Below are positions 1-12,803 of a stretch of 64,000 bases of DNA, piece by piece (position 1 is the stretch's first letter; the number at the start of each line of letters is the position of its first letter). Origin of the DNA: Candidatus Hermodarchaeota archaeon. Lineage in GTDB: Archaea; Asgardarchaeota; Hermodarchaeia; Hermodarchaeales; Hermodarchaeaceae. The stretch lies in contig JAEOTO010000032.1 of the NCBI GenBank assembly GCA_016839805.1, positions 206,725 to 270,724 on the forward strand, written 5' to 3'. Below the pieces are notes generated by a model, which was not told where the DNA came from, made no database searches, and was given only the letters and a program-made list of their open reading frames with translations. Made by a program: the position numbers and the translations under genes.

Positions 1-785
1 AAATGTATATCGGAAATCAGTAACGCGCTAATGTCCTCTTTAGCACGATTATTACGGCGATTAGATGGGATGTCGGGTAGAAACAAATCCTTTGCAATGA
101 GCATTTCAGAGCTGATGATCGCACCTTCTATGCAAAGCACTTGGTCGAGTAAAACTAATTGTACTTTGGAAAAGAGATTCGGGTCCCGATTCTGCACTAT
201 GACAGTGACTCGTCCTGTTAGGTCGTCCAATTCTATAGCAATATTCCCACTCTTTGTCATAGTCTTTTTCGTGACTTGACCAACAATTTTGATTGTTCTA
301 TCTTTATCATTCGTTGTGTTCTTCTTTGATTTCATTGCATCTTGGATGTCAATTATTCCCTTTCCATCTACTCGTTGGCTTAAGATGTCACGTAATCGGT
401 AATATCGATCCTGAAAATTTGAAAGAAAGTCATCAATAGTGCCCTTGCCACGTAATTCGGGTGTAGGATCTTTGAGAATCTTGATTTCCGATTTTATGCC
501 TTCTGCCGGCTGTCTTTTTTTTGTTGGCTGTGTTATTGGTTTCGTTGGTTTAGCGTCTTTTTCTTTGGTTATCTCAGGCGGTTCAATCCGAGGTAATTGA
601 AAATGTGTGGGTTTGAGAACAGGAGTTTCTAAAGGGTGAATTTTGTTTGTTGATAGAAAGGTATCCACAATCTGGTTTGGATTTGGTTCTTTTTGCAACA
701 TATCTAAGGTTTCTGGGCTAATTTGGAATCCGGCTTTGATTAATTTCGCAACAGCTGTTTGTACGTTGGTTTCTTCTGTTGACAC
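1..785 (-). CDS. polB: DNA polymerase D small subunit DP1 (N-terminal part; runs off window edge)
   Basis: Not in the ORF track. Manual translation from GTG 785: MSTEETNVQTAVAKLIKAGFQISPE...GKGTIDDFLSNFQDRYYRL...IVGQV...ELDDLTG (OB fold)...LISDIH (first phosphoesterase motif). Confidence 0.9.
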   Translation of the reverse strand, partial: MSTEETNVQTAVAKLIKAGFQISPETLDMLQKEPNPNQIVDTFLSTNKIHPLETPVLKPTHFQLPRIEPPEITKEKDAKPTKPITQPTKKRQPAEGIKSEIKILKDPTPELRGKGTIDDFLSNFQDRYYRLRDILSQRVDGKGIIDIQDAMKSKKNTTNDKDRTIKIVGQVTKKTMTKSGNIAIELDDLTGRVTVIVQNRDPNLFSKVQLVLLDQVLCIEGAIISSEMLIAKDLFLPDIPSNRRNNRAKEDISALLISDIH

Positions 786-886
786 GCCTTATCGCCAATA
801 CATCAATGGGCAGTTATCTTTTTTGTAGAGTTCGGTTAGGATGATATCATAAGGAACCTTAACGAATATTATCAAGAACTCGATTT

Positions 887-1855
887 ATGGTGGTATCCAT
901 GGAGGCAAGGAAGTTACAGCAAGTTGGGGCGACTTTTCTTCTCTCAGTTCCCAAACACTGGGTCGAAGAACAAGGCCTGAAAAAAGGTTCGATGATTATT
1001 GTACATGAACGCGTGGATGGAATGCTGATAATTGATCCTGGTCTAGTTGAAGAACCATTGAAATTACGAAGTGTAATCACTAATCCGTCGAATTTGGGGC
1101 GTAATATTTTAGCAGGGTATCTTGCGGGGAATGATGTTATTGAGGTTAATCTTGGGAATGAGATGACTCCGGTACTAAAACGTGAAATCAAGCGTATGTC
1201 TCAGTTTTTGGTTGGAGTTGAGATTATGGAAGAGGATGCGTCTACAATGACACTCCAATGTCTAATTCCACGAAGTATTGACTCTCGAACTTATTTGCGA
1301 CGTACTTATGGTATCGCTGCAAAGATGCATGAAGACGCAATACGTGCTTTTATTCGGAATGACCAAGAATTGGCACAAGATGTGATTAACCGAGATCGCG
1401 AAGTGGATCGATTATATTTCCTTGTTGTTCGTCAGCTCCGGAAAGCTATTGCATCACCCACTGGTGACCTTATGCTTTCCCCACTTAATCTCCTCGATTA
1501 TCGGCTTGTTGCCAAGGAAGTAGAAGCTATTGCAGATGGTTGTGCAAGTATCGCCGAACAAGTGATTACAGAAGGTTATGTGGTTCCTCCTCGTCCATTT
1601 GCACGTGTTCTAACGGAAATCAGTCAACAAGTCCTCCTCGCACATCGAGAGGCTATTACAGCGGTTATTAAACAAGATAATAACCGGGCACGGCGTGTTA
1701 TTGCCCTTCAAGAAAAAATTTCAAGGCTTGTTGTTGAAATAACTGAGGTATTAGCAAAACAGGACACATCGGTATTACCCGTCTTTGATCGGGTAATCCA
1801 TAATCTTGAAAGAATCTTTGAATCTAGCATTGATATTGCGGACCTTGTAATATGA
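887..1855 (+). CDS. PhoU-family phosphate uptake regulator with N-terminal AbrB domain
   Basis: RKLQQVGATFLLSVPKHW AbrB-like N-terminus; PhoU repeat DREVDRLYFLVVRQL...VEAIAD; ends IDIADLV. Confidence 0.88.
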   Translation: MVVSMEARKLQQVGATFLLSVPKHWVEEQGLKKGSMIIVHERVDGMLIIDPGLVEEPLKLRSVITNPSNLGRNILAGYLAGNDVIEVNLGNEMTPVLKREIKRMSQFLVGVEIMEEDASTMTLQCLIPRSIDSRTYLRRTYGIAAKMHEDAIRAFIRNDQELAQDVINRDREVDRLYFLVVRQLRKAIASPTGDLMLSPLNLLDYRLVAKEVEAIADGCASIAEQVITEGYVVPPRPFARVLTEISQQVLLAHREAITAVIKQDNNRARRVIALQEKISRLVVEITEVLAKQDTSVLPVFDRVIHNLERIFESSIDIADLVI

Positions 1856-1867
1856 ATAAATATGGAG

Positions 1868-1964
1868 TGGCGCGGAGTAGGGGATTTGAACCCCTGCGAC
1901 CAGATGGTCACTGGATAACCCGATTTATCTCGAGTCCAGCGCGTTACCGCTCCGCCAACTCCGC
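1868..1964 (-). tRNA. tRNA-Ser(CGA) with 12-nt canonical intron (1917-1928)
   Basis: GCGGAGT/ACTCCGC acceptor, G73, encoded CCA, long variable arm; CTGGA-CT-CGA-G[intron]A-TCCAG. Confidence 0.93.
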
Positions 1965-2080
1965 TAGAATTTTGAATATGACGGTACTCGCCAATAAACG
2001 TTTTTTCTCCTCTTTATCTTGTTTCACCCAAACACTTTATTTCCTGGGACGAGTCCCACAACTCAAATAGGTGAATCTCT

Positions 2081-2929
2081 TTGGTCCAATCAAAAGACGT
2101 AACAGCTATACAAAGGAAGTATAAAATCATTGGGCGCCAAGACATAATAACTCAATGTCTTGCTTCGGATCAGGCAGATAAACATCTTCTTATCGAAGGA
2201 CCAGTTGGTGTTGGCAAAACCACGATTGCTTCAGCTATAGCTGATTTCTTAGGGCGCTCTTTTTTCCGTGTTGATGGGGATGAACGTTATACTTCAGCAA
2301 AGCTGGTTGGTTGGTTTGATCCCCCCGTTGTGTTGCAACAAGGCTATACACGCGACACTTTCGTTCCGGGTCCATTAATTGAAACTATGGAAACTGGTGG
2401 GGTACTTTTTATTAATGAAATCAATCGGATGCCTGAAGCAACGCAAAATACATTACTCCCTGTCATGGATGAAGGGCGCTTACATGTACCCAAATTAGGA
2501 ACAATCCTTGCAAAAAATGGTTTCCGCATTATTGCTACACAAAATCCTGAAGCCAGTGTGGGTGTTACACCTCTTGGTGAGGCGCTTCGTGATCGCTATG
2601 TCTGGTTGTACTTGGACTATCATTCTGAATCAGAAGAGCAAGAAATTGTGAAAATAAATACTGGCGTTAAAGATGAAGAAATTCTCAATATTGCTGTAGC
2701 TATTACACGTGCGACACGTGATTATGTCGACATTTTACGAGGGGCCAGCGTTCGGGGTGCAATAGATACCGCTAGTTTATACAAACAACTTCCTGGGGAT
2801 GGTCATAAAATTTGGGAACAAGCAGCGGTGATGTCGCTGGTGCCAAAAATCGAATTGAATGATAATGCCCAAAAATCACCAGTTGAAGTGATATTAACCT
2901 TAGTAAAATCAATTTTAGCAAATTTTTGA
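2081..2929 (+). CDS. MoxR-family AAA+ ATPase
   Basis: Walker A GPVGVGKT, Walker B-like LFINEINR, IATQNP, ALRDR; SD GGTGA before TTG start. Confidence 0.9.
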   Translation: MVQSKDVTAIQRKYKIIGRQDIITQCLASDQADKHLLIEGPVGVGKTTIASAIADFLGRSFFRVDGDERYTSAKLVGWFDPPVVLQQGYTRDTFVPGPLIETMETGGVLFINEINRMPEATQNTLLPVMDEGRLHVPKLGTILAKNGFRIIATQNPEASVGVTPLGEALRDRYVWLYLDYHSESEEQEIVKINTGVKDEEILNIAVAITRATRDYVDILRGASVRGAIDTASLYKQLPGDGHKIWEQAAVMSLVPKIELNDNAQKSPVEVILTLVKSILANF

Positions 2930-3999
2930 TCACGGAGGAGGCTGTGCCCTCCGATGACGTGCCTATTGTACTGTCGGGGACCATTTCAGATGAGAAACTA
3001 TTTGAATCGGAAATCCGTGCTAGTGGGCGTGATTTTCAGTACTATCTTCGGCTGGGACGGACATTTGACTATCCTGCTGCTAAACAAATGGCTGAACTAG
3101 CCATCGAATTCGGTAACGTATCCGCGTTGCAAGCCTTGGCTCAACTCCAACCTATTGCCACTAGTGAAGCGATTTCCAGTCAAAATGGCGTTCACTTGAT
3201 TGCGCGTTCAGCCCGAGAAGGTAATGTCGCTGCGCCCTTACTTTTTTTCCAACTCCGACATCAAATTCGAGGTAAATATCGAGAAACTTTCCGAAAACTT
3301 GCCCGTGCTACCATTATCCATTCAGCGCTCCGGATTAGCGGTCGTGGTTTACGACCTGAAACAATTCAAAATGTTCCTTTCCATCCAGGTCTCAATGAAT
3401 TCGATCTGGATGCTACACTAGAAGAAACCCTTCTAAAACCTGAATACGTTAGTTATACCGACATTGTCGGCATCGAGCGTGTAGCTCGAAGAAAAATCGG
3501 TACCATCATTCTCGATACTTCAGGATCCATGGCAGGTCTCAAATTGCTTACTGCCGCAACAGCAGCTGCGGTTGCTGCTTACCATCTTCGGCACGATAAA
3601 TACGCGCTCATCGCTTTCAATACTGTCGCAAATACTGTCAAATCAATGGATCAACATACCACCATTGATTCTATCGTTGACACAATCCTCGATACCGAAC
3701 CCGCTGGTTATACAAATATTGCTGACGCTCTCAAAACGGCTTATACCCAATATGAGCGCTCTCACCGGTATGAATCCTGGGCTATTCTCATTACTGACGG
3801 TATCGCCAACCGTGGTGGGTCACCAGAACCCTTTGCTCGTAAATATCAAAACCTCCATGTTCTTCAGACACCTGGGACTCATCCCCAAGGTGAAGAAACC
3901 TGTCAACGCATCGCACTACTCGGTCGTGGACGTCACATTAAGGTAAACTCCTACACCGAAGTGCCACGTGCCCTAATACGACTCTTACGACATACATAA
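2926..3999 (+). CDS. VWA-domain protein, partner of the MoxR ATPase
   Basis: MIDAS DTSGS, YTNI, LITDG; 4-nt overlap with the MoxR gene. Confidence 0.9.
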   Translation: MITEEAVPSDDVPIVLSGTISDEKLFESEIRASGRDFQYYLRLGRTFDYPAAKQMAELAIEFGNVSALQALAQLQPIATSEAISSQNGVHLIARSAREGNVAAPLLFFQLRHQIRGKYRETFRKLARATIIHSALRISGRGLRPETIQNVPFHPGLNEFDLDATLEETLLKPEYVSYTDIVGIERVARRKIGTIILDTSGSMAGLKLLTAATAAAVAAYHLRHDKYALIAFNTVANTVKSMDQHTTIDSIVDTILDTEPAGYTNIADALKTAYTQYERSHRYESWAILITDGIANRGGSPEPFARKYQNLHVLQTPGTHPQGEETCQRIALLGRGRHIKVNSYTEVPRALIRLLRHT

Positions 4000-4013
4000 C
4001 AAGAGAAAGTTGG

Positions 4014-4073
4014 TTAATAGGGGAAAGGACAAACGCCTAATGGACCAATTTCTTCTCCAGGAAGAGGATACAC
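4014..4073 (-). CDS. Putative 19-aa micropeptide MYPLPGEEIGPLGVCPFPY
   Basis: SD GGTGA (4083-4079) 5 nt before GTG; shares MYP start and PFPY-stop end with the micro-ORF at 4331; T-rich tract after the stop. Confidence 0.6.
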   Translation of the reverse strand: MYPLPGEEIGPLGVCPFPY

Positions 4074-4330
4074 ATAATTCACCAAAAGTTGGTGTGTAAT
4101 TTCATACTTAAACACCAAAACATTTCGTACTATAGTATCGAAACAAAACCAAACTCATTTACTCAATTTTACAAACGAATCTAAACAAACTTCGTAAGGC
4201 CAAATTACTTGCAAAAACTCTCTCAAAATCTCGTAAAAATAGTCCAACTCTTTTCGTGTAATTTTCTTTGTTTATATAGAATTTTAGAACGGCTCCTATA
4301 GTAATAACAACTATGGAGGCATCTAACAAA

Positions 4331-4363
4331 ATGTACCCCCCGCAACATCCCTTCCCTTATTAA
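4331..4363 (+). CDS. Putative 10-aa micropeptide MYPPQHPFPY
   Basis: TATA box TTTATATA 4271-4278, SD GGAGG 4315-4319; leader homologous to that of the micro-ORF at 6318; stop overlaps the stop of the 585-aa gene (TTAA 4360-4363). Confidence 0.65.
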   Translation: MYPPQHPFPY

Positions 4364-6117
4364 AAACTATTTTTCCTCCTTTTTTTTGACTTAATTTTTG
4401 GTAGTGTATTCTCTGTCCATACCCATTTTTTTGCATCAAAATCATAGTACTTTGGTTGAATTGGTGATTCAAAACCTGTCATTGCCTGCCAAGTAGGTTT
4501 CACTTGAAATGCTACATTGATTTCCTGGTTTGAAAAGATTTTTTGTAATGTTGATAGAACATCAACAGCATTATGATTCGGGACATAAAGGAAAACATAA
4601 CCATTACCATTTTCAAGAATTACTCCACTAATATTAGGAAGTATATGAAGCGATTGAAGTACTTGTATAGTTATTTCTCGTGGTTCGAAAATGTAAATTT
4701 GGATTACTGTGTCCAAGCCCACGTGGTAAAGAATCAATCCTTGTAGTTTGCTTACGTTGTTTTTTTCTAATTTCTTTATTTGTCTCCTAAATTTCATATG
4801 AGCTGAATCTGCAAGACCTGCGTAACGGGCTTCAAGTGATGGTTGTGCTGCTACTCGATCTGTGCTGAGAATAATTCTGTGATCTCGTCTAAAATATATG
4901 AAATCCTCAGGATTCAATTGAACAGGGAATTTCTGAGTGCTCTGTAATAAGTTGTAGGAAAATTCCAGTGAATACGTTTTTGGTATTTCTTCAACTGGTA
5001 TCTCTTCTGATAAAATTGTACGAGATTTTTCGAGAATAACCGAAAAGTCTTGGGGCCATCCAATTTCGGGTATATATGAACTAAGATTCCAGTTGTTAAT
5101 AATCTCAGAGCTTCGTACGTTCATTAATATTGAGATCTTCTCTTGAACCACGAGGTCTTCTAACCAATCGTTAAAGGTCATTCTTTGGTTGTTTGGGATA
5201 AGTACTCTACAATGAAGTAGGTTATCCTGAATGAGGTTAATTAACCAGGTGTAACAAATTTCAGAAAAGAAAGATGAAATCTGCTGGCATTTCTTTTGGC
5301 TTGGTATCTGTAGAATTACCTCATGGGGAGTTAATCCGATTAATGGTAAGTTGATAAAGTGATATAAGCGAAGTAGATGTCTTTGAGCAAGTTTATTCAA
5401 CGCTTGACTAAGAGCAGAAGGGGTCATTTGAAGTTGTTTAGCAAGTTTGCTTTGATGGAGGGTAGTTATGTGTTTCAGCGTCAAAAGGATACGTAGCTCA
5501 CTACTCGTAAGAGGGGTATGGGTCTCAAGCATCCACCGTTCAAGGGCGGCAGTATAGGTTGATGTGGCGAGGGGAGTGCCGGTGCTTGTGGGACGAATAG
5601 TGTTAAGCCAGTGGAGGGCGCGGTGGAGAAAGCTGCCGGCAACAACTTGATCGAAGAGGGGGAAGCCTAAGGGCGCGTCGTATATGTAGTGCTGGTAGTG
5701 TTGGGGTGGGGACACCTGCTTCCAGATCTTGGTAAACGCCTTATATTCAGATTCGGTATAGTTGCCGTAACGGAGACCAGCGTAGAGGCCAAGGTCAGCC
5801 GCTTCGGGGATGTGACGTAGGTGAGGTAGAAGAAGGCTTAGGAGGGCTTCCCGCCAAAGCACCCAATCTAAGACATGGGAGTCAGCATCTTTGAGGTCCC
5901 GGGCGAGGGCAACGTACCAACCGCCGCGTAGTTGGTTCGCAAGTTGTGTTTCAAGAGCGCCAAAGCGTGGGCGATCATAGATTAACGGGTTGTCACCCCA
6001 TACGAGGTAAAGAATACGGTCTTGCTTCCGGAATAAGGAATCCATAATGAGCTCGGTGGCTAATTGATCCTGTTTACGATGGAACCTTTGCATCAGCTCA
6101 CGCGACCTCGATGACAA
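4360..6117 (-). CDS. Large HTH / tandem Lrp-AsnC-like protein (paralog 1)
   Basis: Central wHTH (ELRILLTL...QSKLAKQLQMTPSALSQALNKL), Lrp-type linkers INLPLIGL and YHVGLD, C-terminal YDFxxxxWxW; colinear with 6474-8204 (PRFGA, VLWREA, ADLGLY, GFPxFD, LERWM). Confidence 0.7.
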   Translation of the reverse strand: MSSRSRELMQRFHRKQDQLATELIMDSLFRKQDRILYLVWGDNPLIYDRPRFGALETQLANQLRGGWYVALARDLKDADSHVLDWVLWREALLSLLLPHLRHIPEAADLGLYAGLRYGNYTESEYKAFTKIWKQVSPPQHYQHYIYDAPLGFPLFDQVVAGSFLHRALHWLNTIRPTSTGTPLATSTYTAALERWMLETHTPLTSSELRILLTLKHITTLHQSKLAKQLQMTPSALSQALNKLAQRHLLRLYHFINLPLIGLTPHEVILQIPSQKKCQQISSFFSEICYTWLINLIQDNLLHCRVLIPNNQRMTFNDWLEDLVVQEKISILMNVRSSEIINNWNLSSYIPEIGWPQDFSVILEKSRTILSEEIPVEEIPKTYSLEFSYNLLQSTQKFPVQLNPEDFIYFRRDHRIILSTDRVAAQPSLEARYAGLADSAHMKFRRQIKKLEKNNVSKLQGLILYHVGLDTVIQIYIFEPREITIQVLQSLHILPNISGVILENGNGYVFLYVPNHNAVDVLSTLQKIFSNQEINVAFQVKPTWQAMTGFESPIQPKYYDFDAKKWVWTENTLPKIKSKKRRKNSF

Positions 6118-6211
6118 TATTTAGCCATCCAACCACACGATGACTATACAAGGGATTCAGGTTAATTTTACCTTCCGATTATCCTTGAAGTATCAATAAA
6201 TAAAAGAAAGG

Positions 6212-6234
6212 AAGGAAACCATCGAGGTTTCCTT
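6212..6234 (-). terminator. Hairpin plus T-rich tract downstream of the MWPP micro-ORF
   Basis: Perfect 9-bp stem AAGGAAACC/GGTTTCCTT followed on the minus strand by CCTTTCTTTTATTT. Confidence 0.5.
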
Positions 6235-6279
6235 TTAGTAAGTACTAAGTAGGAATCGATGTATGTCCCTTTTTATTTC

Positions 6280-6318
6280 CTAAATATCATGAGGGTCAGG
6301 ACGACGAGGGGGCCACAT
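6280..6318 (-). CDS. Putative 12-aa micropeptide MWPPRRPDPHDI
   Basis: TATA-like TTTAAA 6375-6370, SD GGAGG 6333-6329, leader GGAGGCATCAAAACA-ATG nearly identical to that of the 4331 micro-ORF, terminator-like hairpin downstream. Confidence 0.62.
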   Translation of the reverse strand: MWPPRRPDPHDI

Positions 6319-6473
6319 TGTTTTGATGCCTCCGAGGGTTATCTACTCTTCATTTCATGTAAGTTTCCCTTTAAAGACCGAAAATTATTTGCAAAAAGTA
6401 GGATGGATTTTTTTTCTAAATGGACTTTTTGTGTAATAATCTGGTTATTGGTTGTTACATTCATGAATAATTA

Positions 6474-8204
6474 TCAGGTGCGAGGTAGTGGCAAGGTATC
6501 TTTTGTCCATATCCACATGTTTTTTCCAAAGTCGTAGTTAACAGAATCTATAGTATATGGTCCCGTCCATCCATAAGCTTCCCACGCAGGTCTAATTGCT
6601 GTAACGGCCGGAATTTCAAGGGCAGTGAGTAATTCGTTTAAGGAGATTTGTAGATATACAGCGGACTCAGAAGGTACAAGAAGTGTAGCAACACCAGCTC
6701 CATCATCGAATATTCTTCCTGCAACGTGTGGAAACAGTTGACACGCAGTGAAGATTAGGCGAGTTTCCTCTATTGATGATTCAAGGTATAGATAGAGAGC
6801 AGTATTTAAGCCAATATTTAACAACCCAAGTCCGAGTGGTGGGCTAATTACTTCATTTTTTTCAAGATATTTGACACGTCGACGATAAGCCATGTGTTCA
6901 GATTCTTTATATCCAGCCTGCCTCAACTCATGGGACTCAAAAAACTTCATGTGCTCAGTAGCGAGATAAGCATCAGATGCTCTTTGCATGAAAAAGAAAT
7001 CTTGTTGTTTAATCTCGATGCTTTTTTTCGAATGAGAGGAAGCCAGCTTGTAAAAGTTAATGGGTGGTAAATGTGGAATCCATTCTTCTGATATTAATCT
7101 CGAAAAATTGTCAAATATTGATTCGATTTCAAGGGACCAGCCATCCTTTTGGGGGTCGTACAGATTAAAGTTTCGAGCGTGCATTCTTTCTGAAATCATT
7201 CGTAGTTCCGGTGAGCTAAGACCATAACTTGAAGACACTTGTTTAAGCCATTGGCGGAATCGTGTCATTCGTTCTGTTGGAATTAAGAATGAAGCTAAAA
7301 GCTGATTATTGAATTCTTGAATTGCAAGTGCATAACGAATTCTAGAGATTATTTGCGTCAGGGAATTTTTAATTCTCATATTCGAAGTAGAAAATTTGAC
7401 TGTGATTGGTTGAAGACCAAGTATCGGATAATTTTCGAAGATAACAAACCGTAAAAGGTGTTTTTCTGCAAGTCTTTTAATTACTTGACTTATTGTTGGC
7501 TGGCGGATGTTGAGTTTATCAGCTAATTCGATCTGTGAACAGGTAAGACAATTGTTAATGCCCTTTAGGATTTTAAGTTCTATTGGTCGTAAAATTCTGT
7601 GATAGTTGAACATCCAGCGTTCGAGATTCTCAGCATAAGTCTGTGTGGTCATCTTCGTTGATAGTTGAAAGAATGGTTTGAACCATAGTTTGGTCTTCTG
7701 GAGAAAGGTACCATCTACAAGTTTATCGAAAAACGGAAACCCTGCTGTGGGAAAATAGCGGTAAAAGGTATATTCTATAGGTGGTGATGTAATTTCCCAG
7801 ATTTGGAGAAACCAGTGTCGCTGCTTCTTGGTTCTGAGTGCATAGCGGGAGTAGCAATATAGACCGAGATCAGAGGCTTCTTTTACAGAGCGTACTATTT
7901 TGGGTATGTGGAGTAGATAGGCTTCACGCCATAATACCGCATTAAGAAGATTCCTACGTTCAGTAAGCAATTCTTCCGATAATTCCAAAGTTAATTGATT
8001 GTTGGTGCTTGTTTCGTTAGCACCGAAGCGTGGTCCGGTGAGTTCGATTGGGTTTTGGATCCAGCGAATAGTAGTATACGTGTCGAGGGATTCGGTACCA
8101 ATAATCTGTTGTAATTGTCGTGCGATTTCATTAAAACGATGCAAAGCTTCTGTCTTTCGTTGCTTAAGGATTTCATCTGAAATTTTAGAAGGATTTGTAT
8201 TCAT
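6474..8204 (-). CDS. Large HTH / tandem Lrp-AsnC-like protein (paralog 2)
   Basis: HTH SQIELADKLNIRQPTISQVIKRL, linkers NYPILGL and LNIGLN, C-terminal YDFGKNMWIW. Confidence 0.7.
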   Translation of the reverse strand: MNTNPSKISDEILKQRKTEALHRFNEIARQLQQIIGTESLDTYTTIRWIQNPIELTGPRFGANETSTNNQLTLELSEELLTERRNLLNAVLWREAYLLHIPKIVRSVKEASDLGLYCYSRYALRTKKQRHWFLQIWEITSPPIEYTFYRYFPTAGFPFFDKLVDGTFLQKTKLWFKPFFQLSTKMTTQTYAENLERWMFNYHRILRPIELKILKGINNCLTCSQIELADKLNIRQPTISQVIKRLAEKHLLRFVIFENYPILGLQPITVKFSTSNMRIKNSLTQIISRIRYALAIQEFNNQLLASFLIPTERMTRFRQWLKQVSSSYGLSSPELRMISERMHARNFNLYDPQKDGWSLEIESIFDNFSRLISEEWIPHLPPINFYKLASSHSKKSIEIKQQDFFFMQRASDAYLATEHMKFFESHELRQAGYKESEHMAYRRRVKYLEKNEVISPPLGLGLLNIGLNTALYLYLESSIEETRLIFTACQLFPHVAGRIFDDGAGVATLLVPSESAVYLQISLNELLTALEIPAVTAIRPAWEAYGWTGPYTIDSVNYDFGKNMWIWTKDTLPLPRT

Positions 8205-8325
8205 TGTGAGAGTTCCCGTGGTTTTCCCTAGACTAGTCTATTCATGAATATGACATCTTAATAGTCTTAGGAAGAATAAGTGATTGAAGGTGTGGAGTTT
8301 TTCTATTCTATAGTCTTGAGATGAA

Positions 8326-8507
8326 TGGCGCGACTGCTTGGTCGTAGTCCGGGTGGCTGAGCGGTGTACAATCTGTGGGGTGGTTGGATGCCTCGCAACA
8401 ATAATCGATTGCACATCTCCCCTCGTTGGATCCGACTGCCGATTGAGGGTCCGGAATCGTGCCGGGGGTACAATACGGTAGTCGGAGCACGGCCACTACG
8501 TTAGCCA
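8326..8507 (+). ncRNA. Unidentified structured RNA (~180 nt)
   Basis: GC-rich intergenic island with nested stems, e.g. TCCGACTGCCG/CGGTAGTCGGA, CGTAGT/ACTACG, TGTGGGGT/GCCTCGCA; G-U pairs favour the + strand; T-run follows. Confidence 0.55.
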
Positions 8508-8549
8508 ATTTTTATCAGAAATTGCTAACAGTTCAAATAGCAGAAGAAG

Positions 8550-8669
8550 TGGTAGCGGGGGGTTGATTTGAACAACCGATCTCGGGGTTTCCCAAGGGGA
8601 TTTATGAGCCCCGCGGGATATCAGGTCTCGGTGAGGAACACCAAGATATCCTGGCTACCCCACCCCGCT
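8550..8669 (-). tRNA. Initiator tRNA-Met(CAT) with two introns (20a/21: 8620-8647; 37/38: 8589-8602)
   Basis: A1:T72 pair, G-rich anticodon stem CGGGG/CCCCG, CAT anticodon; 120 nt minus 28 and 14 gives a 78-nt mature tRNA; BHB central helix CAGG/CCTG. Confidence 0.92.
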
Positions 8670-8777
8670 TCCGAAGATAATGGGAATCGTTAGAGAAGAG
8701 CCGGCGTTATTGATTTAAGCTTTGTGCCTTGAAGAAGATAAGCAACCGGTTCGCTTTGAGTGATGGAGAAGAAGTAG

Positions 8778-8854
8778 TGGTGGGTCGGACGGGCTTCGAA
8801 CCCGCGACCTCTCGGTTATCAGCCGAGTGCCCTACCAAGCTAGGCCACCGACCC
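8778..8854 (-). tRNA. tRNA-Ile(GAT)
   Basis: Complete cloverleaf GGGTCGG...CTCGG-CTGATAA-CCGAG...CCGACCCACCA; no intron. Confidence 0.96.
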
Positions 8855-8925
8855 ACTCGTTGTTCGGGATTGCGCGTAGGGTTTTTCGTTTATATGGGTT
8901 TTGCCGATGCAGTGATGGGGTGAGT

Positions 8926-9000
8926 TGGTGGAGTGGCCGGGATTTGAACCCGGGGCCTCGTGTGTGCGAGACACGCGATCTACCGCTGATCTACCACCCC
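8926..9000 (-). tRNA. tRNA-Ala(CGC)
   Basis: Cloverleaf with G3:U70, anticodon loop CTCGCAC, encoded CCA. Confidence 0.96.
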
Positions 9001-9013
9001 ACTGGGTTCGGGG

Positions 9014-11428
9014 TTATTTTGGTGGAAGTATTTGTGTGTTACCCTTTGTGGTGAATTCTAGGATCTCGATGTTGTGCATCTGTTTCAAGTCATTAGCATA
9101 GGGTTGTAGGTCTTTGGTCGTGGTGACTCGGGGTATTACCTCACGAAAGCTCATTTTGTGGTCTTTTTTATATTTCCATACATCTGCGTTGAACTGAGTT
9201 AATGTGTCAGTGGGATGGTCTTGGTCGATGATAGCAATAGGTTCGGGAAATAATTGTTTATGAATCGAACTGTCAGGGCTGTAGAGTGTGCGATGGATTT
9301 TATCGGTGATGTATGGGCAGATGGGAGCAAGGAGTTTGAGAATACTATGGAGCACGGAATGGAGAGTATGCCAAGCAGCGTTACGCTCAGCGGTATCTTC
9401 TTCACTGTAGGCACGACCCTTAACTAGTTCAAGGTAGTGACTAGCAAAAATGTCCCAAGTGAAGGTTCGGAGTTCACGGGCGGGGATATGGAAATCGAGT
9501 TTGTCATAACCCTTGCGACTTTTTTTTATGAGGTTGTTGAGTTCAGTTAGAATCCAGTTATCGGTAGGTTGAAGGTCATCCTTGTCTGCGTTGATATAGG
9601 GGAAACCGGAGATAAAACGGGAAATGTTCCAGAGTTTAGTGAGGAATCGGTGAGCGCCAGCTAATCGACCTTCACTATATCGGAAGTCAGAGCCAAGAGA
9701 GGCTTCGAGCGCGCCCCATAGTCGTAAGGCATCAGCTCCAAACTGGTTAATGATAGGGTTAGGATCGATGGTGTTACCACGAGATTTACTCATGGCTTCA
9801 CCCTTTTCATCGAGTCCGTGACCACTAATCCAGATGTATTTGAAAGCGGGAGCTTTGAAAAGTTGATAGATTCGGAGAATGGAATAGTAGAGCCAAGTTC
9901 GAACTATATCCTTGCCTTGTGGGCGAATGCTCGCTGGGAAGGCATGTTCGAAAAATTCATTATCTTTGGAATAAAAGATTGTAATAAGGGCGCTTATGGA
10001 TGAATCCATCCAAGTGTCCATGGTGCGGGTTTCGCCTTCGAATCCTTCGGTAGCTCCACATTTGGGACATTTTTTGGTTGGTGGTGGTGTTTTCCATGGT
10101 TGATAATAAACACCTGGTGGTGGAACGATGGTTTCATTGCATTGAGTGCAATACCAGAGCGGAATTTCCGTTCCATAAAAACGGCGTCGACTAATGGGCC
10201 AGTCATGGGTGACACTATTAATCCAATCAATGAGTATTTGTTTGTGTTTTGGTGGGAAGAATTCCATCTGGTCAGTAACAGTTAGGAGATCATCAATGTA
10301 TGGAATTTGCTTCAAATAATATTCAGGCATAGCCACAAATTCAATGGGATTTCTGCTTCGCCAACACGTAGGGGTTCGATGGATGGTGGTATCTTGTTTG
10401 ATAACAAGATCCTTTTTACTTAGGTCTTTGAGGATTGCGCTTCTTGCCTTGTTGACGGTCATTCCCTTATATGGGCCCGTTACTTCCGTCAGTTTTCCGT
10501 CGGGACCAAGTGCGTTAATAGGTTTAAGTTGCAGGTCTCGAAAGAGGCGCACGTCAGTATAATCACCATAACTGCACACCATGACGACTCCGCTACCAAA
10601 TTCGATGCGCGCCTCATGGTGAGGGATAATTGGTACATTCTTTTCGTATAGCGGTGTAACTGCTGTTTTGTTGTGGAGGTGTTTGTACCGTTCATCTTCT
10701 GGGTTAACAAGCACAGCTGCACATGCAGACAACAGTTCCGGTCGTGTTGTAGCAATCGGTAATTCTTCATTCGTATCCTTTACAGAGAATTTTATTGTCG
10801 AGAGGGTTGTTTCGATGTCCTTGTATTCGACCTCGGCATCAGCAATGGTGGTTCCACATTCAGGACACCAATTGTTTGGTCGGTCATCGATGAAAATTTG
10901 GTTTTTGTTGAAGAGTTCTATGAAGGTGCTTTGTGTAACGGCTCGATATTCAGGGCTATCGGTTCGATACATCTCATCATGTTTGAAGGAGTTACAACTC
11001 AATCCTAGACGCTGTGCCTGAGCCACGACTAATTCTTCATTTTGATCCAAGAATTTTGCACACATTTCTAGAAACTTTTGTCGCGGTATATCATGCATAC
11101 TAATATTGTAGGCTATTTCGACTTGAACTTCAATAGGTAATCCGTTTCGGTCTAATCCCATAGGAAAGATGACTTCATTTCCTTCCATGCGTTTTGTACG
11201 GGCAATCATATCAATTTGAGCATAGTGAATTGCACCTCCAACATGGAAGGGACCACTCAGATAAGGGGGTGGTGTGTCAACAGAGAAGATGGGGTTTTTA
11301 GTATCTCTTTCAAAAGTGTATAGCTGCTCCTTAGTCCATAACTGAAGGATTTCCTCCTCGATTTTTGGCTTCCAACGCTTTTCTTTTAGCAGTATCTTTT
11401 GCCCCATCATTTCTAGCCTCTGCACCAT
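9014..11428 (-). CDS. valS: Valine--tRNA ligase
   Basis: DTPPPY, HVGG (HIGH-like), ATTRPEL, DWPISRRR, DTWMDS, AMSKS. Confidence 0.95.
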   Translation of the reverse strand: MVQRLEMMGQKILLKEKRWKPKIEEEILQLWTKEQLYTFERDTKNPIFSVDTPPPYLSGPFHVGGAIHYAQIDMIARTKRMEGNEVIFPMGLDRNGLPIEVQVEIAYNISMHDIPRQKFLEMCAKFLDQNEELVVAQAQRLGLSCNSFKHDEMYRTDSPEYRAVTQSTFIELFNKNQIFIDDRPNNWCPECGTTIADAEVEYKDIETTLSTIKFSVKDTNEELPIATTRPELLSACAAVLVNPEDERYKHLHNKTAVTPLYEKNVPIIPHHEARIEFGSGVVMVCSYGDYTDVRLFRDLQLKPINALGPDGKLTEVTGPYKGMTVNKARSAILKDLSKKDLVIKQDTTIHRTPTCWRSRNPIEFVAMPEYYLKQIPYIDDLLTVTDQMEFFPPKHKQILIDWINSVTHDWPISRRRFYGTEIPLWYCTQCNETIVPPPGVYYQPWKTPPPTKKCPKCGATEGFEGETRTMDTWMDSSISALITIFYSKDNEFFEHAFPASIRPQGKDIVRTWLYYSILRIYQLFKAPAFKYIWISGHGLDEKGEAMSKSRGNTIDPNPIINQFGADALRLWGALEASLGSDFRYSEGRLAGAHRFLTKLWNISRFISGFPYINADKDDLQPTDNWILTELNNLIKKSRKGYDKLDFHIPARELRTFTWDIFASHYLELVKGRAYSEEDTAERNAAWHTLHSVLHSILKLLAPICPYITDKIHRTLYSPDSSIHKQLFPEPIAIIDQDHPTDTLTQFNADVWKYKKDHKMSFREVIPRVTTTKDLQPYANDLKQMHNIEILEFTTKGNTQILPPK

Positions 11429-11543
11429 TCTTTAACTGAGTTACATGAAAGGAGCCATATTTGGCACTTGTTGTATTTTTCTTTTTAACTAGGAGACGGC
11501 ATTCTTTCGTATATTAAAAAGGCTTTCTCCAAGAATTTCTGAC

Positions 11544-12803
11544 CTAAGCCTGTTCAGCCCATCGTAAAATCGCTGCAAAACCTCGAAATGCACCTAGTAA
11601 TTGTTTTCCTTCCTCAGTCTCAGGCGAGATGATTTCCAGCGTGGACCCAGTTTCTTGTGCTAGTTCGTTAAACTCTTCAATGATGTCTTGGGCTTTTTCA
11701 ATTCCAAGGGACTGGTTATGACAGTTAGGACATTGTTGTTCTGCTAATTGATCTTCAAATTCGGAAATGGAATCAGGCTCTAAAGTTTTCTCGGAGCTGT
11801 AACCACAAGAACTACAAGTAATGGTAGCACGTTCATAATCAATACCTTCAGAAACTAATATTGTGTCAACAGCTCCTCGATCAAGAGCTTCTCGGACTTG
11901 TTTTTCTCCATATGTAGCACGACCTGTATCACGGGCGAGTTCACTGAGAAACCGTTGGACCAGGCGCTTTTCTTTAACAAGTCGTTGGTTTCGTAGAATT
12001 TCCTCAGATTTCTCTACCAGAGCCCTAATGCCTTCTTCTCCCGCATATGCTGTATCGAGAACAGCCAAGATTTTGTCTTTGAGGGGGCTAGTGAGATAAC
12101 CTTTCTCAGCAAAGACTGCCTTGGTAAATCCCGGTCCTCCGATAATTATTCCACTCAAATCGGAAATTTCCTCGAACAGTTCTCGAGTCAATTCGCTTGA
12201 TTTAGTGAGAAATTCGTGAGCTGCTTGTTCGATTAGCCGTTCAAATCGTCTCTGACTCTGACCTCCTGCTCGGTGTTTACCCATAATTCCCGATTTAAGC
12301 GTTTTAACAATCTTTAAATTAGTTCCTCTGAGGAGAGCCCATGCTGATTGACTACGATCGATTGAAATTAGCCCATAACTGCTTTTAGGGCTTAACATAT
12401 CACGGAGGGGATCAAGCCAGAACTCAGAGGCACATTGGTAGATATACACATTGACCGGTTCTGGTGGTTCAATGAGGTAAATTTCCATTTTTTCGCTACC
12501 TGGTGCCCCTTTCGGGATTGCGCCAGCAAATACTGCAAGTCCATTTGGAGGTGGTTTAGGAATGATTTTTAATCGCTGGATGACGGTTTGGATGGCGTCC
12601 ATTACATTTTTTCGTGTCGATTTCGACTTGATGTTTGTTGCGGTCCCGTATTCAGTGCGTAGTGTTCCAATGACGTCACTTATTTGCCGGTCTGAAGGAA
12701 TATAGAGAGTGATTAATTCCGTGTGTAGTCCTTTTTTTCGTGCTAAAGTGTCCACTACCTTCTTGAGTTTGAACCGCTGATACGATTCACTAGTAGTAGA
12801 CAT
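11544..12803 (-). CDS. prf1: Peptide chain release factor aRF1
   Basis: NIKS, YxC and GGQS motifs; CxxC...CxxC insertion in domain 3. Confidence 0.97.
   Translation of the reverse strand: MSTTSESYQRFKLKKVVDTLARKKGLHTELITLYIPSDRQISDVIGTLRTEYGTATNIKSKSTRKNVMDAIQTVIQRLKIIPKPPPNGLAVFAGAIPKGAPGSEKMEIYLIEPPEPVNVYIYQCASEFWLDPLRDMLSPKSSYGLISIDRSQSAWALLRGTNLKIVKTLKSGIMGKHRAGGQSQRRFERLIEQAAHEFLTKSSELTRELFEEISDLSGIIIGGPGFTKAVFAEKGYLTSPLKDKILAVLDTAYAGEEGIRALVEKSEEILRNQRLVKEKRLVQRFLSELARDTGRATYGEKQVREALDRGAVDTILVSEGIDYERATITCSSCGYSSEKTLEPDSISEFEDQLAEQQCPNCHNQSLGIEKAQDIIEEFNELAQETGSTLEIISPETEEGKQLLGAFRGFAAILRWAEQA

Follow-up and report, generated by a model that had tools for sequence, protein, structure and literature searches.

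The closest functional analogues of the system described here are the RRNPP(A) systems of Bacillota and phages (Rap/Phr, Rgg/SHP, PlcR/PapR, PrgX and AimR/AimP), in which a tiny peptide gene adjoins the gene of a cytoplasmic receptor bearing a helix-turn-helix (HTH). We describe a locus with this adjacency in a stretch of 64,000 nt from Candidatus Hermodarchaeota archaeon (assembly GCA_016839805.1, contig JAEOTO010000032.1, positions 206,725 to 270,724 of the forward strand; hereafter the window, with positions counted from its first nucleotide). The locus comprises three micro-open reading frames (micro-ORFs) of 10 to 19 residues, named pepA, pepB and pepC, and two paralogous large genes encoding proteins of 585 aa and 576 aa. 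As in the RRNPP(A) systems, the peptide genes appear to have their own promoters with an operator-like box, paralogous modules stand side by side, and tandem duplication of peptide genes was observed. The source assembly, labelled G000, is an archaeal metagenome-assembled genome (MAG) of 2.31 Mb in 50 contigs, with a GC content of 43.8%; its relatives are Asgard archaea, and the loci of these relatives and of metagenomes are designated by L-numbers.

The pepA micro-ORF (4331-4363, + strand) extends from an ATG at 4331 to a TAA at 4361-4363 and encodes the peptide MYPPQHPFPY. The pepB micro-ORF (6318-6280, - strand; ATG at 6318-6316, TAG at 6282-6280) encodes MWPPRRPDPHDI, a peptide of 12 residues. 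The former is convergent with the 585-aa gene (4360-6117, - strand), the two stop codons overlapping, whereas the latter is located between the 576-aa gene (6474-8204, - strand) and the 585-aa gene, on the same strand as both. An earlier note on this DNA, made from the sequence of the window, had reported the two micro-ORFs, a leader cassette shared between them and their opposite orientation relative to the neighbouring large genes, and all of this was found exactly as described.

Peptides of the A and B types share the core M-[YW]-P-P-x-x-P-x-P. Variation among them was mostly located at third codon positions, with summed entropies over the 8 core codons of 5.1, 7.0 and 11.8 bits at codon positions 1, 2 and 3, respectively (31 distinct nucleotide sequences), and all four Pro codons were represented in these cores. 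The residues other than Pro that were kept are an aromatic residue at position 1, R at position 4/5, and D/E or F at position 7. ORF length was constrained to 10-14 codons, while the N-terminal extension varied (M, MQ, MH, MT or MS), and Pro was frequently observed at position -2 from the stop. Relatives of the A type included MYP[PAQ]R[DP]PFP[SYC], MYPPRP..PVPS and MSYPR[IL]RP..., and those of the B type M[WY]PP[RS][RH]P[DE]P[HFL].., MQWPP[VI]RP.P.P and MHYPPTRPNPF.

Micro-ORFs starting with [YWF]P and led by a Shine-Dalgarno (SD) sequence were present at the same two positions in all of the relatives' loci examined (16 out of 16), and SD-led micro-ORFs also flanked the pair of large genes in 11 metagenome loci, as well as in loci with wider flanks. 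The 11 metagenome loci, from lineages of 56-59% GC whose large proteins are approximately 34% identical, contributed the peptides MYPPRSPEPLPG, MWPPIKPEPTPG, MYPPPRPEPVPH, MYPPRCPYPPL and MYPPATPHPLPG; the core [YW]PPxxPxP was thus retained across lineages ranging from 39% to 59% GC. Overall, comparative evidence establishes pepA and pepB as real coding genes under coding selection. Such ORFs are rare: SD-led short Pro-rich ORFs starting with M-x(0-2)-[YWF]-P occurred 12 times in 4.6 Mb of two-strand sequence, with 3 of the 12 at this locus, and neither a six-frame motif search nor an M[YWF]PP scan of the genome revealed any convincing further family member outside the locus. An exact-pattern scan of viral contigs for viral carriage returned no match. 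An explanation by a known RNA was considered and rejected, as the Rfam search at E ≤ 1 returned only tRNAs for positions 1-12000 of the window, and RNAalifold gave values of about 0 kcal/mol on the aligned A and B transcripts.

In the intergenic region downstream of pepB, duplication of the pepB cassette was observed, with two intact copies in L006 and L008 and remnants in L007, L013 and L015. In the sister genus (L016/L044), we observed an in-frame, tandemly doubled peptide, MYPPSRPDGGPN-N-YPPSRPDGGPN. At the sequence level, the duplicates, the decayed copies and the doubled peptide together indicate a birth-and-death turnover of the peptide genes.

The third micro-ORF, pepC (4073-4014, - strand), has a GTG start and an SD sequence GGTGA at 4083-4079, and encodes M-YPLPGEEIGPLGVCPFPY, a peptide of 19 aa. 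Its versions within the genus (MYP[RKQA]PGDEPGPL, MYPIPGTEIGPLTARPIPF and MYPLPGEEIGPLGVCPFPY) share the core Y-P-x-P-G-x-E-x-G-P; start codons vary among ATG, GTG and TTG, and synonymous changes are numerous. A pepC-like counterpart, MYPPYPGGPC, was identified in the GC-rich lineage. A near-palindrome, TTTCG-N11-CGAAA (4143-4123; TTTCGATACTATAGTGCGAAA / gTTTCGATACTATAGTGCGAAA), is kept upstream of pepC in 9 loci and may serve as an operator or as part of a promoter; it differs from the A/B cassette. In the window, pepC is convergent with the 3' end of a vWA gene, and the same flank is conserved in the 9 loci of the genus where pepC was found. Pfam identified the vWA gene in the window as well as in the loci of two relatives (L059 and L061); in one of these, from a lineage of 56% GC, it stands beside the pepC-like ORF. 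In most genomes, pepC is located upstream of the 576-aa gene. A comparison of window 4014-8204 with L032-L043 showed that the block formed by the 576-aa gene, pepB, the 585-aa gene and pepA is inverted in G000 and its closest relative with respect to the other members of the genus, so that pepC adjoins pepA there.

Upstream of pepA and pepB, the shared cassette consists, in order, of an upstream box, 14 nt, a TATA box, 39-45 nt, the SD sequence with its conserved extension GGAGGCATC, about 10 nt and the ATG, the ORF being followed by a T-run or hairpin terminator. For pepA, sequence reading and promoter alignment placed the TATA box TTTATATA at 4271-4278 and GGAGGCATC at 4315-4323 (+ strand), and for pepB, the TATA box TTTAAA at 6375-6370 and GGAGGCATC at 6333-6325 (- strand); the distances of 44 and 42 nt from TATA to GGAGG given in the earlier note were confirmed. 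The upstream box of pepB (6397-6390, - strand) is a perfect copy of the consensus TTTTTGCA and a candidate regulator binding site, whereas that of pepA (4249-4256, + strand) is degenerate (TCTTTTCG). In 17 related loci, 31 peptide genes are headed by this cassette, with fixed spacing. Alignment of these 31 promoters on the TATA box, all from low-GC loci, yielded the consensus C.atTTTTTGCAt.t..TTTt.gg.c-TTTAaA, with TTTTTGCA located 22-15 nt upstream of the TATA start (a fixed gap of 14 nt). The distance from the TATA start down to GGAGG is 39-45 nt, and that from the first G of GGAGG to the start codon is 13-16 nt. The TTGCA box, at the same spacing from TATA, also precedes most of the peptide genes in loci of 46-59% GC; the A copies of G000, of its closest relative (L002) and of two further relatives (L004 and L009) deviate from the consensus box.

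The cassette is hardly encountered elsewhere. The genome search proposed in the earlier note, run as GGAGGCATC-N5-8-ATG, gave 3 matches in the 2.31-Mb assembly, two of which, beyond chance expectation, are pepA and pepB; the third match (C22:145539, - strand) heads a 47-codon ORF that is not Pro-rich. That the cassette might be a general promoter type of this genome was also rejected, since TTTTGCA-N12-16-TTTAWA occurs only 3 times genome-wide. The bare TTGCA pentamer is not enriched in the window (187 observed versus 172 expected), and thus only the positioned box is meaningful.

Downstream of the ORFs, two T-runs (4370-4387, + strand) directly 3' of pepA form a candidate archaeal terminator, and T-runs, or a hairpin with a T-run, also follow most of the A copies. 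A hairpin, GGAAACC-N5-GGTTTCC (6232-6214, - strand, with a T-rich tract to 6195), begins about 45 nt beyond the stop codon of pepB and is a candidate terminator and element of the 3' untranslated region (UTR). No second copy of it exists in the 2.3-Mb genome; 16 related loci, some of them of 56% GC, retain the sequence of the stem with loops that vary. Such conservation exceeds the needs of a plain terminator, and a protein may bind to this RNA hairpin in the 3' UTR of pepB. Further downstream, a block AATCGGAAGGTARAATTA (6179-6166, - strand), which is kept upstream of orthologues of the 585-aa gene, is assumed to be the promoter of that gene; it differs from the peptide cassette, and its pattern has one other, weaker match in the genome. 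With its own conserved cassette, strong SD and terminator, and with a separate promoter for the 585-aa gene after the pepB hairpin, each peptide gene seems to be transcribed separately, as a very short unit of promoter, SD, ORF of 10-19 codons and terminator, in agreement with the independence that the earlier note had proposed.

The 585-aa and 576-aa proteins are paralogues sharing 32% identity and the same architecture: residues 1-200 of the 585-aa protein form a domain that resembles zincins and lacks their zinc ligands, and residues ~200-578 form two Lrp/AsnC modules, each composed of a winged HTH (wHTH) and a RAM domain. The only Pfam match was a MarR-type wHTH at residues ~203-250, and neither Pfam nor the structural model gave any match to TPR. 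The full-length AlphaFold model, built with 17 sequences, had a predicted local distance difference test score (pLDDT) of 81. In structure comparisons, residues 205-578 matched NirDL (4czc), a fused Lrp/AsnC pair (Foldseek E 2e-7, VIA-align Z 15.7), and single modules matched archaeal Lrp/AsnC regulators with Z values of 8-9 (2ia0, 2dbb and 1ri7). The Lrp/AsnC layout of a wHTH followed by a RAM domain (beta-alpha-beta-beta-alpha-beta) was thus recovered, with two modules per chain.

The N-domain, when folded alone, reached a pLDDT of 92. Its best match was the catalytic domain of the M1 aminopeptidase F3 (1z1w; VIA-align Z 10.1 over 170 of 200 residues, rmsd 4.2), and all but about 3 of its top 50 matches were metallopeptidases by name, including thermolysin, DPP III, oligoendopeptidase F and TAF2, the rest being structural-genomics entries of unknown function. 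The pseudo-enzyme TAF2 was matched at Z 7.2-7.5. Judging from these models, the fold is probably that of a zincin, similar to M1 aminopeptidases. The helix at the position of the zincin HExxH motif, an equivalence drawn from helix order, reads [WYAF]-R-E-x-x-[LFY] in the 24 aligned sequences (24 out of 24), with no His, and the zinc ligands formed by HExxH plus a downstream Glu were not found. Residues R89, E90, D108, F52 and W132 are invariant in the 24 aligned N-domains, and the domain contains many invariant aromatic residues. Because no zinc-binding His is present, the N-domain is, according to the model, very likely a non-catalytic, peptide-binding remnant. In addition, the invariant strand F52-G53-x-x-E56 recalls, by order and spacing, the GxMEN motif that holds the free N-terminus of the substrate in M1 enzymes.

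Matches to the 585-aa protein were obtained in all of the genomes of the same genus (14 out of 14) and of the sister genus (4 out of 4), and the tandem pair was present in 14 out of 14 and 1 out of 4, respectively. Both splits, between the A and B peptides and between the two large genes, are older than the genus. A profile search for the large-protein family among 1.84 billion representatives returned 21 clusters at E ≤ 1e-30 and 465 at E ≤ 1e-3. A second search, among 5.8 billion, returned 56 clusters at 90% identity, whose annotations read hypothetical, MarR or Lrp; all of the organism names given for these were Asgard archaea.

More distant homologues, reaching E values of ~1e-28, were found in a branch of 33-35% GC, represented by L048 and by L020, the latter belonging to a different family of the phylum. 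The large genes form a tandem pair in L048, and a second gene follows the homologue in L020. Next to the large genes, we identified SD-led, Pro-rich micro-ORFs of a different type (MVGP..WPSPWPEPPPP), namely MVGPDQPLPDWPSPWPEPPPP and MVGPGDGDPVPLWPSPWPEPPPPSSG (L048:360-425 and L020:2916-2996), which exhibit 6 synonymous and 0 non-synonymous differences over the 11 codons of WPSPWPEPPPP, are followed by a T-run and differ in orientation between the two loci. Since the distant branch keeps both the large gene and a Pro-rich micro-ORF, the association between this protein family and proline-rich micropeptides is older than the [YW]PP peptides themselves. A second intergenic 'MYP' ORF in L048 and L020 was not counted as a peptide, as it looks like a hairpin pair with compensatory changes. 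In distant homologues, the large gene was also observed next to a CRISPR-like array (L048, ~4100-4414, repeat approximately TTTCATACTATTTAGTTAAGCTAAAAC) or to cas2-cas1 (L049:1809-3049); this adjacency may be a coincidence or a functional link.

The locus is surrounded by housekeeping synteny (ValRS, Cdc6 and the small subunit of DNA polymerase), with a MoxR AAA+/vWA pair as conserved neighbour. In G000, a third paralogue of the large genes (C21:13794-15572, - strand) is conserved in the genus and followed on the same strand by an SD-led ORF of ~110 codons. Elsewhere in the window, one of the tRNA matches (1871-1964, - strand) spans 94 nt, which exceeds the standard tRNA length, and may contain an intron; positions 8326-8507 gave no Rfam match at E ≤ 1.

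The explanation that we tentatively favour, with a confidence that stays a little below even, casts the peptides as ligands of the neighbouring pseudo-peptidase regulators, whose site of action would be the conserved TTGCA box. Three ribosomally made proline-rich peptides would be used unprocessed or minimally trimmed. The N-domain would keep a cleft similar to that of M1 aminopeptidases and, as the zinc ligands are gone (HExxH replaced by R-E-x-x-L), would bind the peptide without cutting it. Peptide occupancy would then be relayed to the two wHTH and RAM modules and alter their DNA binding; RAM domains are known sensors of small ligands. The likeliest DNA target would be the TTGCA box, which precedes the TATA box of the peptide genes by 14 nt and lies just upstream of the region formed by the TFB-recognition element (BRE) and the TATA box, and a regulator bound there would exert feedback on peptide production. 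TTGCA is a half-site of archaeal Lrp-type boxes, such as those of Ss-LrpB. Peptide binding, DNA binding at the box and export are all steps that we infer. A broader proposal is possible but somewhat more doubtful: that this is the first gene-encoded peptide-signal/receptor system of Archaea, in which unprocessed deca- to dodecapeptides with the core [YW]PPxxPxP are sensed by a pseudo-aminopeptidase-Lrp/AsnC fusion, as a core circuit of the whole class Hermodarchaeia that might serve cell-cell communication.

Several observations weigh against the ligand model. The zincin assignment of the N-domain was obtained by structure comparison only: the isolated domain gave no significant match in Foldseek (best E-value 0.35), and sequence searches yielded no informative Pfam match at E ≤ 10 (two single-member matches at chance level) and no meaningful match in the PDB. 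DNA binding is not certain either, as Lrp/AsnC folds can be enzymes, such as NirDL, and the A promoter of G000 itself has a degenerate box. No Pro-rich micro-ORF was found near the third paralogue. The peptides have no signal sequence, and a quorum-sensing function would need an additional export route. The organisms are uncultured and represented by MAGs, the system being known here from sequence alone. The locus also contains three peptide genes for two large genes. This mismatch bears as well on the proposal of the earlier note that each peptide was duplicated together with its partner gene, which is plausible given the shared cassette and motif and the 32% identity of the large genes. The deep conservation of the peptide core would also fit a target other than the neighbouring protein. 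Together with the core, syntenic position of the locus and the confinement of variation to a few positions, it does not support the suggestion, made in the same note, that the peptides diverged like a pherotype; an internal regulatory circuit would account for this pattern no less well than strain-specific communication.

Among the other explanations, the micro-ORFs could be cis-acting arrest or leader peptides. Their translation, sensitive to aIF5A or to the proline supply, would govern whether transcripts of neighbouring genes are terminated or read through, or what becomes of the mRNA. Consecutive Pro codons right after the start are a classic stalling context, established for EF-P/eIF5A-dependent motifs, and both the frequent Pro at -2 from the stop and the position of pepB, upstream of the 585-aa gene and in the same direction, are consistent with such a role. 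However, pepA and pepC are convergent with their neighbours and no gene follows on their strand, and for pepB, the hairpin starts beyond the reach of ribosome occlusion from the stop codon and precedes a separate, conserved promoter of the 585-aa gene. For none of the three micro-ORFs was a regulated gene or a switchable structure found directly downstream in the same transcript. Moreover, the orientation relative to the large gene shifts between lineages while the peptide sequence is kept, and conservation extends to residues other than Pro, which makes cis-acting arrest quite improbable in our assessment. Rather than the act of translation, the released peptide looks like the functional unit in the sequence comparison, because ORF length is constrained, non-Pro residues are kept and a doubled peptide exists, because N-terminal extensions are tolerated before the aromatic-Pro start, and because A and C have no downstream gene on their own strand. 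Extensions ahead of the X-Pro bond would resist trimming by aminopeptidases at that point.

Real peptides may also act on another target, such as the MoxR AAA+/vWA pair, an Asgard polyproline-binding protein or the ribosome exit tunnel, which is the target of proline-rich antimicrobial peptides; the large proteins would then merely control transcription of the peptide genes. We regard this as unlikely, although it draws on several observations: pepC converges on the 3' end of the vWA gene in the window, its conserved flank is found again in the 9 genus loci compared, and a vWA gene stands by the pepC-like ORF at 56% GC, the peptide core is conserved more deeply than is usual for cognate signal-receptor pairs, and the P-x-x-P periodicity would suit polyproline-II recognition. 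The vWA neighbour may, however, merely mirror the conserved gene order amid housekeeping synteny, and the distant lineage keeps the large protein and a Pro-rich micro-ORF with no vWA on its two short contigs (4.4 and 3.9 kb), whose remaining ORFs are unannotated. It is very improbable that the micro-ORFs are precursors of ribosomally synthesized and post-translationally modified peptides (RiPPs), with the large proteins serving as scaffold or enzyme. Very short, precursor-like genes do adjoin large conserved proteins, and the Lrp/AsnC fold has been recruited as an enzyme in NirDL/AhbAB; yet the locus has no conserved modifying enzyme, protease or transporter, 10-12 residues show no leader/core organisation, the peptidase-like domain lacks metal ligands, and the MarR-type wHTH signatures are retained.

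Annotation does not see genes of 10-12 codons, and here three of them, in an uncultured Asgard lineage, could be shown by comparison alone to be under coding selection and were tied to a rare, unnamed protein family. If the peptides are indeed ligands of these proteins, the latter would represent a receptor class unrelated to known peptide sensors, in which a peptidase fold has turned into a binding module wired to Lrp/AsnC, and this lineage, the closest to eukaryotes, would provide the first peptide-based circuit of regulation or communication in Archaea. This ligand model can be tested with synthetic peptides and recombinant protein, and culture of the organism is unnecessary.

Compared with the RRNPP(A) systems, the putative receptor exhibits, in place of a TPR domain, a zincin-like domain and two Lrp/AsnC modules. 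The peptides do not have the form of exported and processed propeptides: they have 10-19 residues in total, are hydrophilic or Pro-rich, and contain neither a signal nor a pro-region. Doubled propeptides are also described for RRNPPA systems (PMC11343458). Here, the host is an Asgard archaeon, the locus forms part of the vertically inherited core rather than being accessory, and the peptide core is deeply conserved rather than diversified. The two wHTH+RAM modules at residues ~200-578 resemble Lrp/AsnC regulators and NirDL/AhbAB, but they are fused in one chain and preceded by an additional zincin-like N-domain of 200 residues; the suspected ligand is a gene-encoded peptide and not a free amino acid, and NirDL is an enzyme and not a regulator. 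With M1 aminopeptidases (tricorn-interacting factor F3, LTA4H, APN) and TAF2, the N-domain shares the fold of the catalytic domain, a Glu at the position of the HExxH Glu, and a strand FG-x-x-E reminiscent of GxMEN. It differs from the M1 enzymes in that both His ligands are replaced, by R and L, that no sequence similarity is detectable, and that it lacks the flanking M1 domains and is fused instead to modules of the DNA-binding type. IrrE/PprI and ImmA-type proteins carry a zincin domain, an HTH and a small sensor domain in similar order; those are active proteases cleaving a partner repressor, whereas the present proteins lack the metal site and would have a micropeptide as partner. No protein of this type appeared in the structure-match lists, which does not by itself exclude one. 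Full-text searching of the literature returned no description of such a system, and we rate this combination of micropeptides with a pseudo-peptidase-Lrp/AsnC protein, whose function remains putative, as new in kind.

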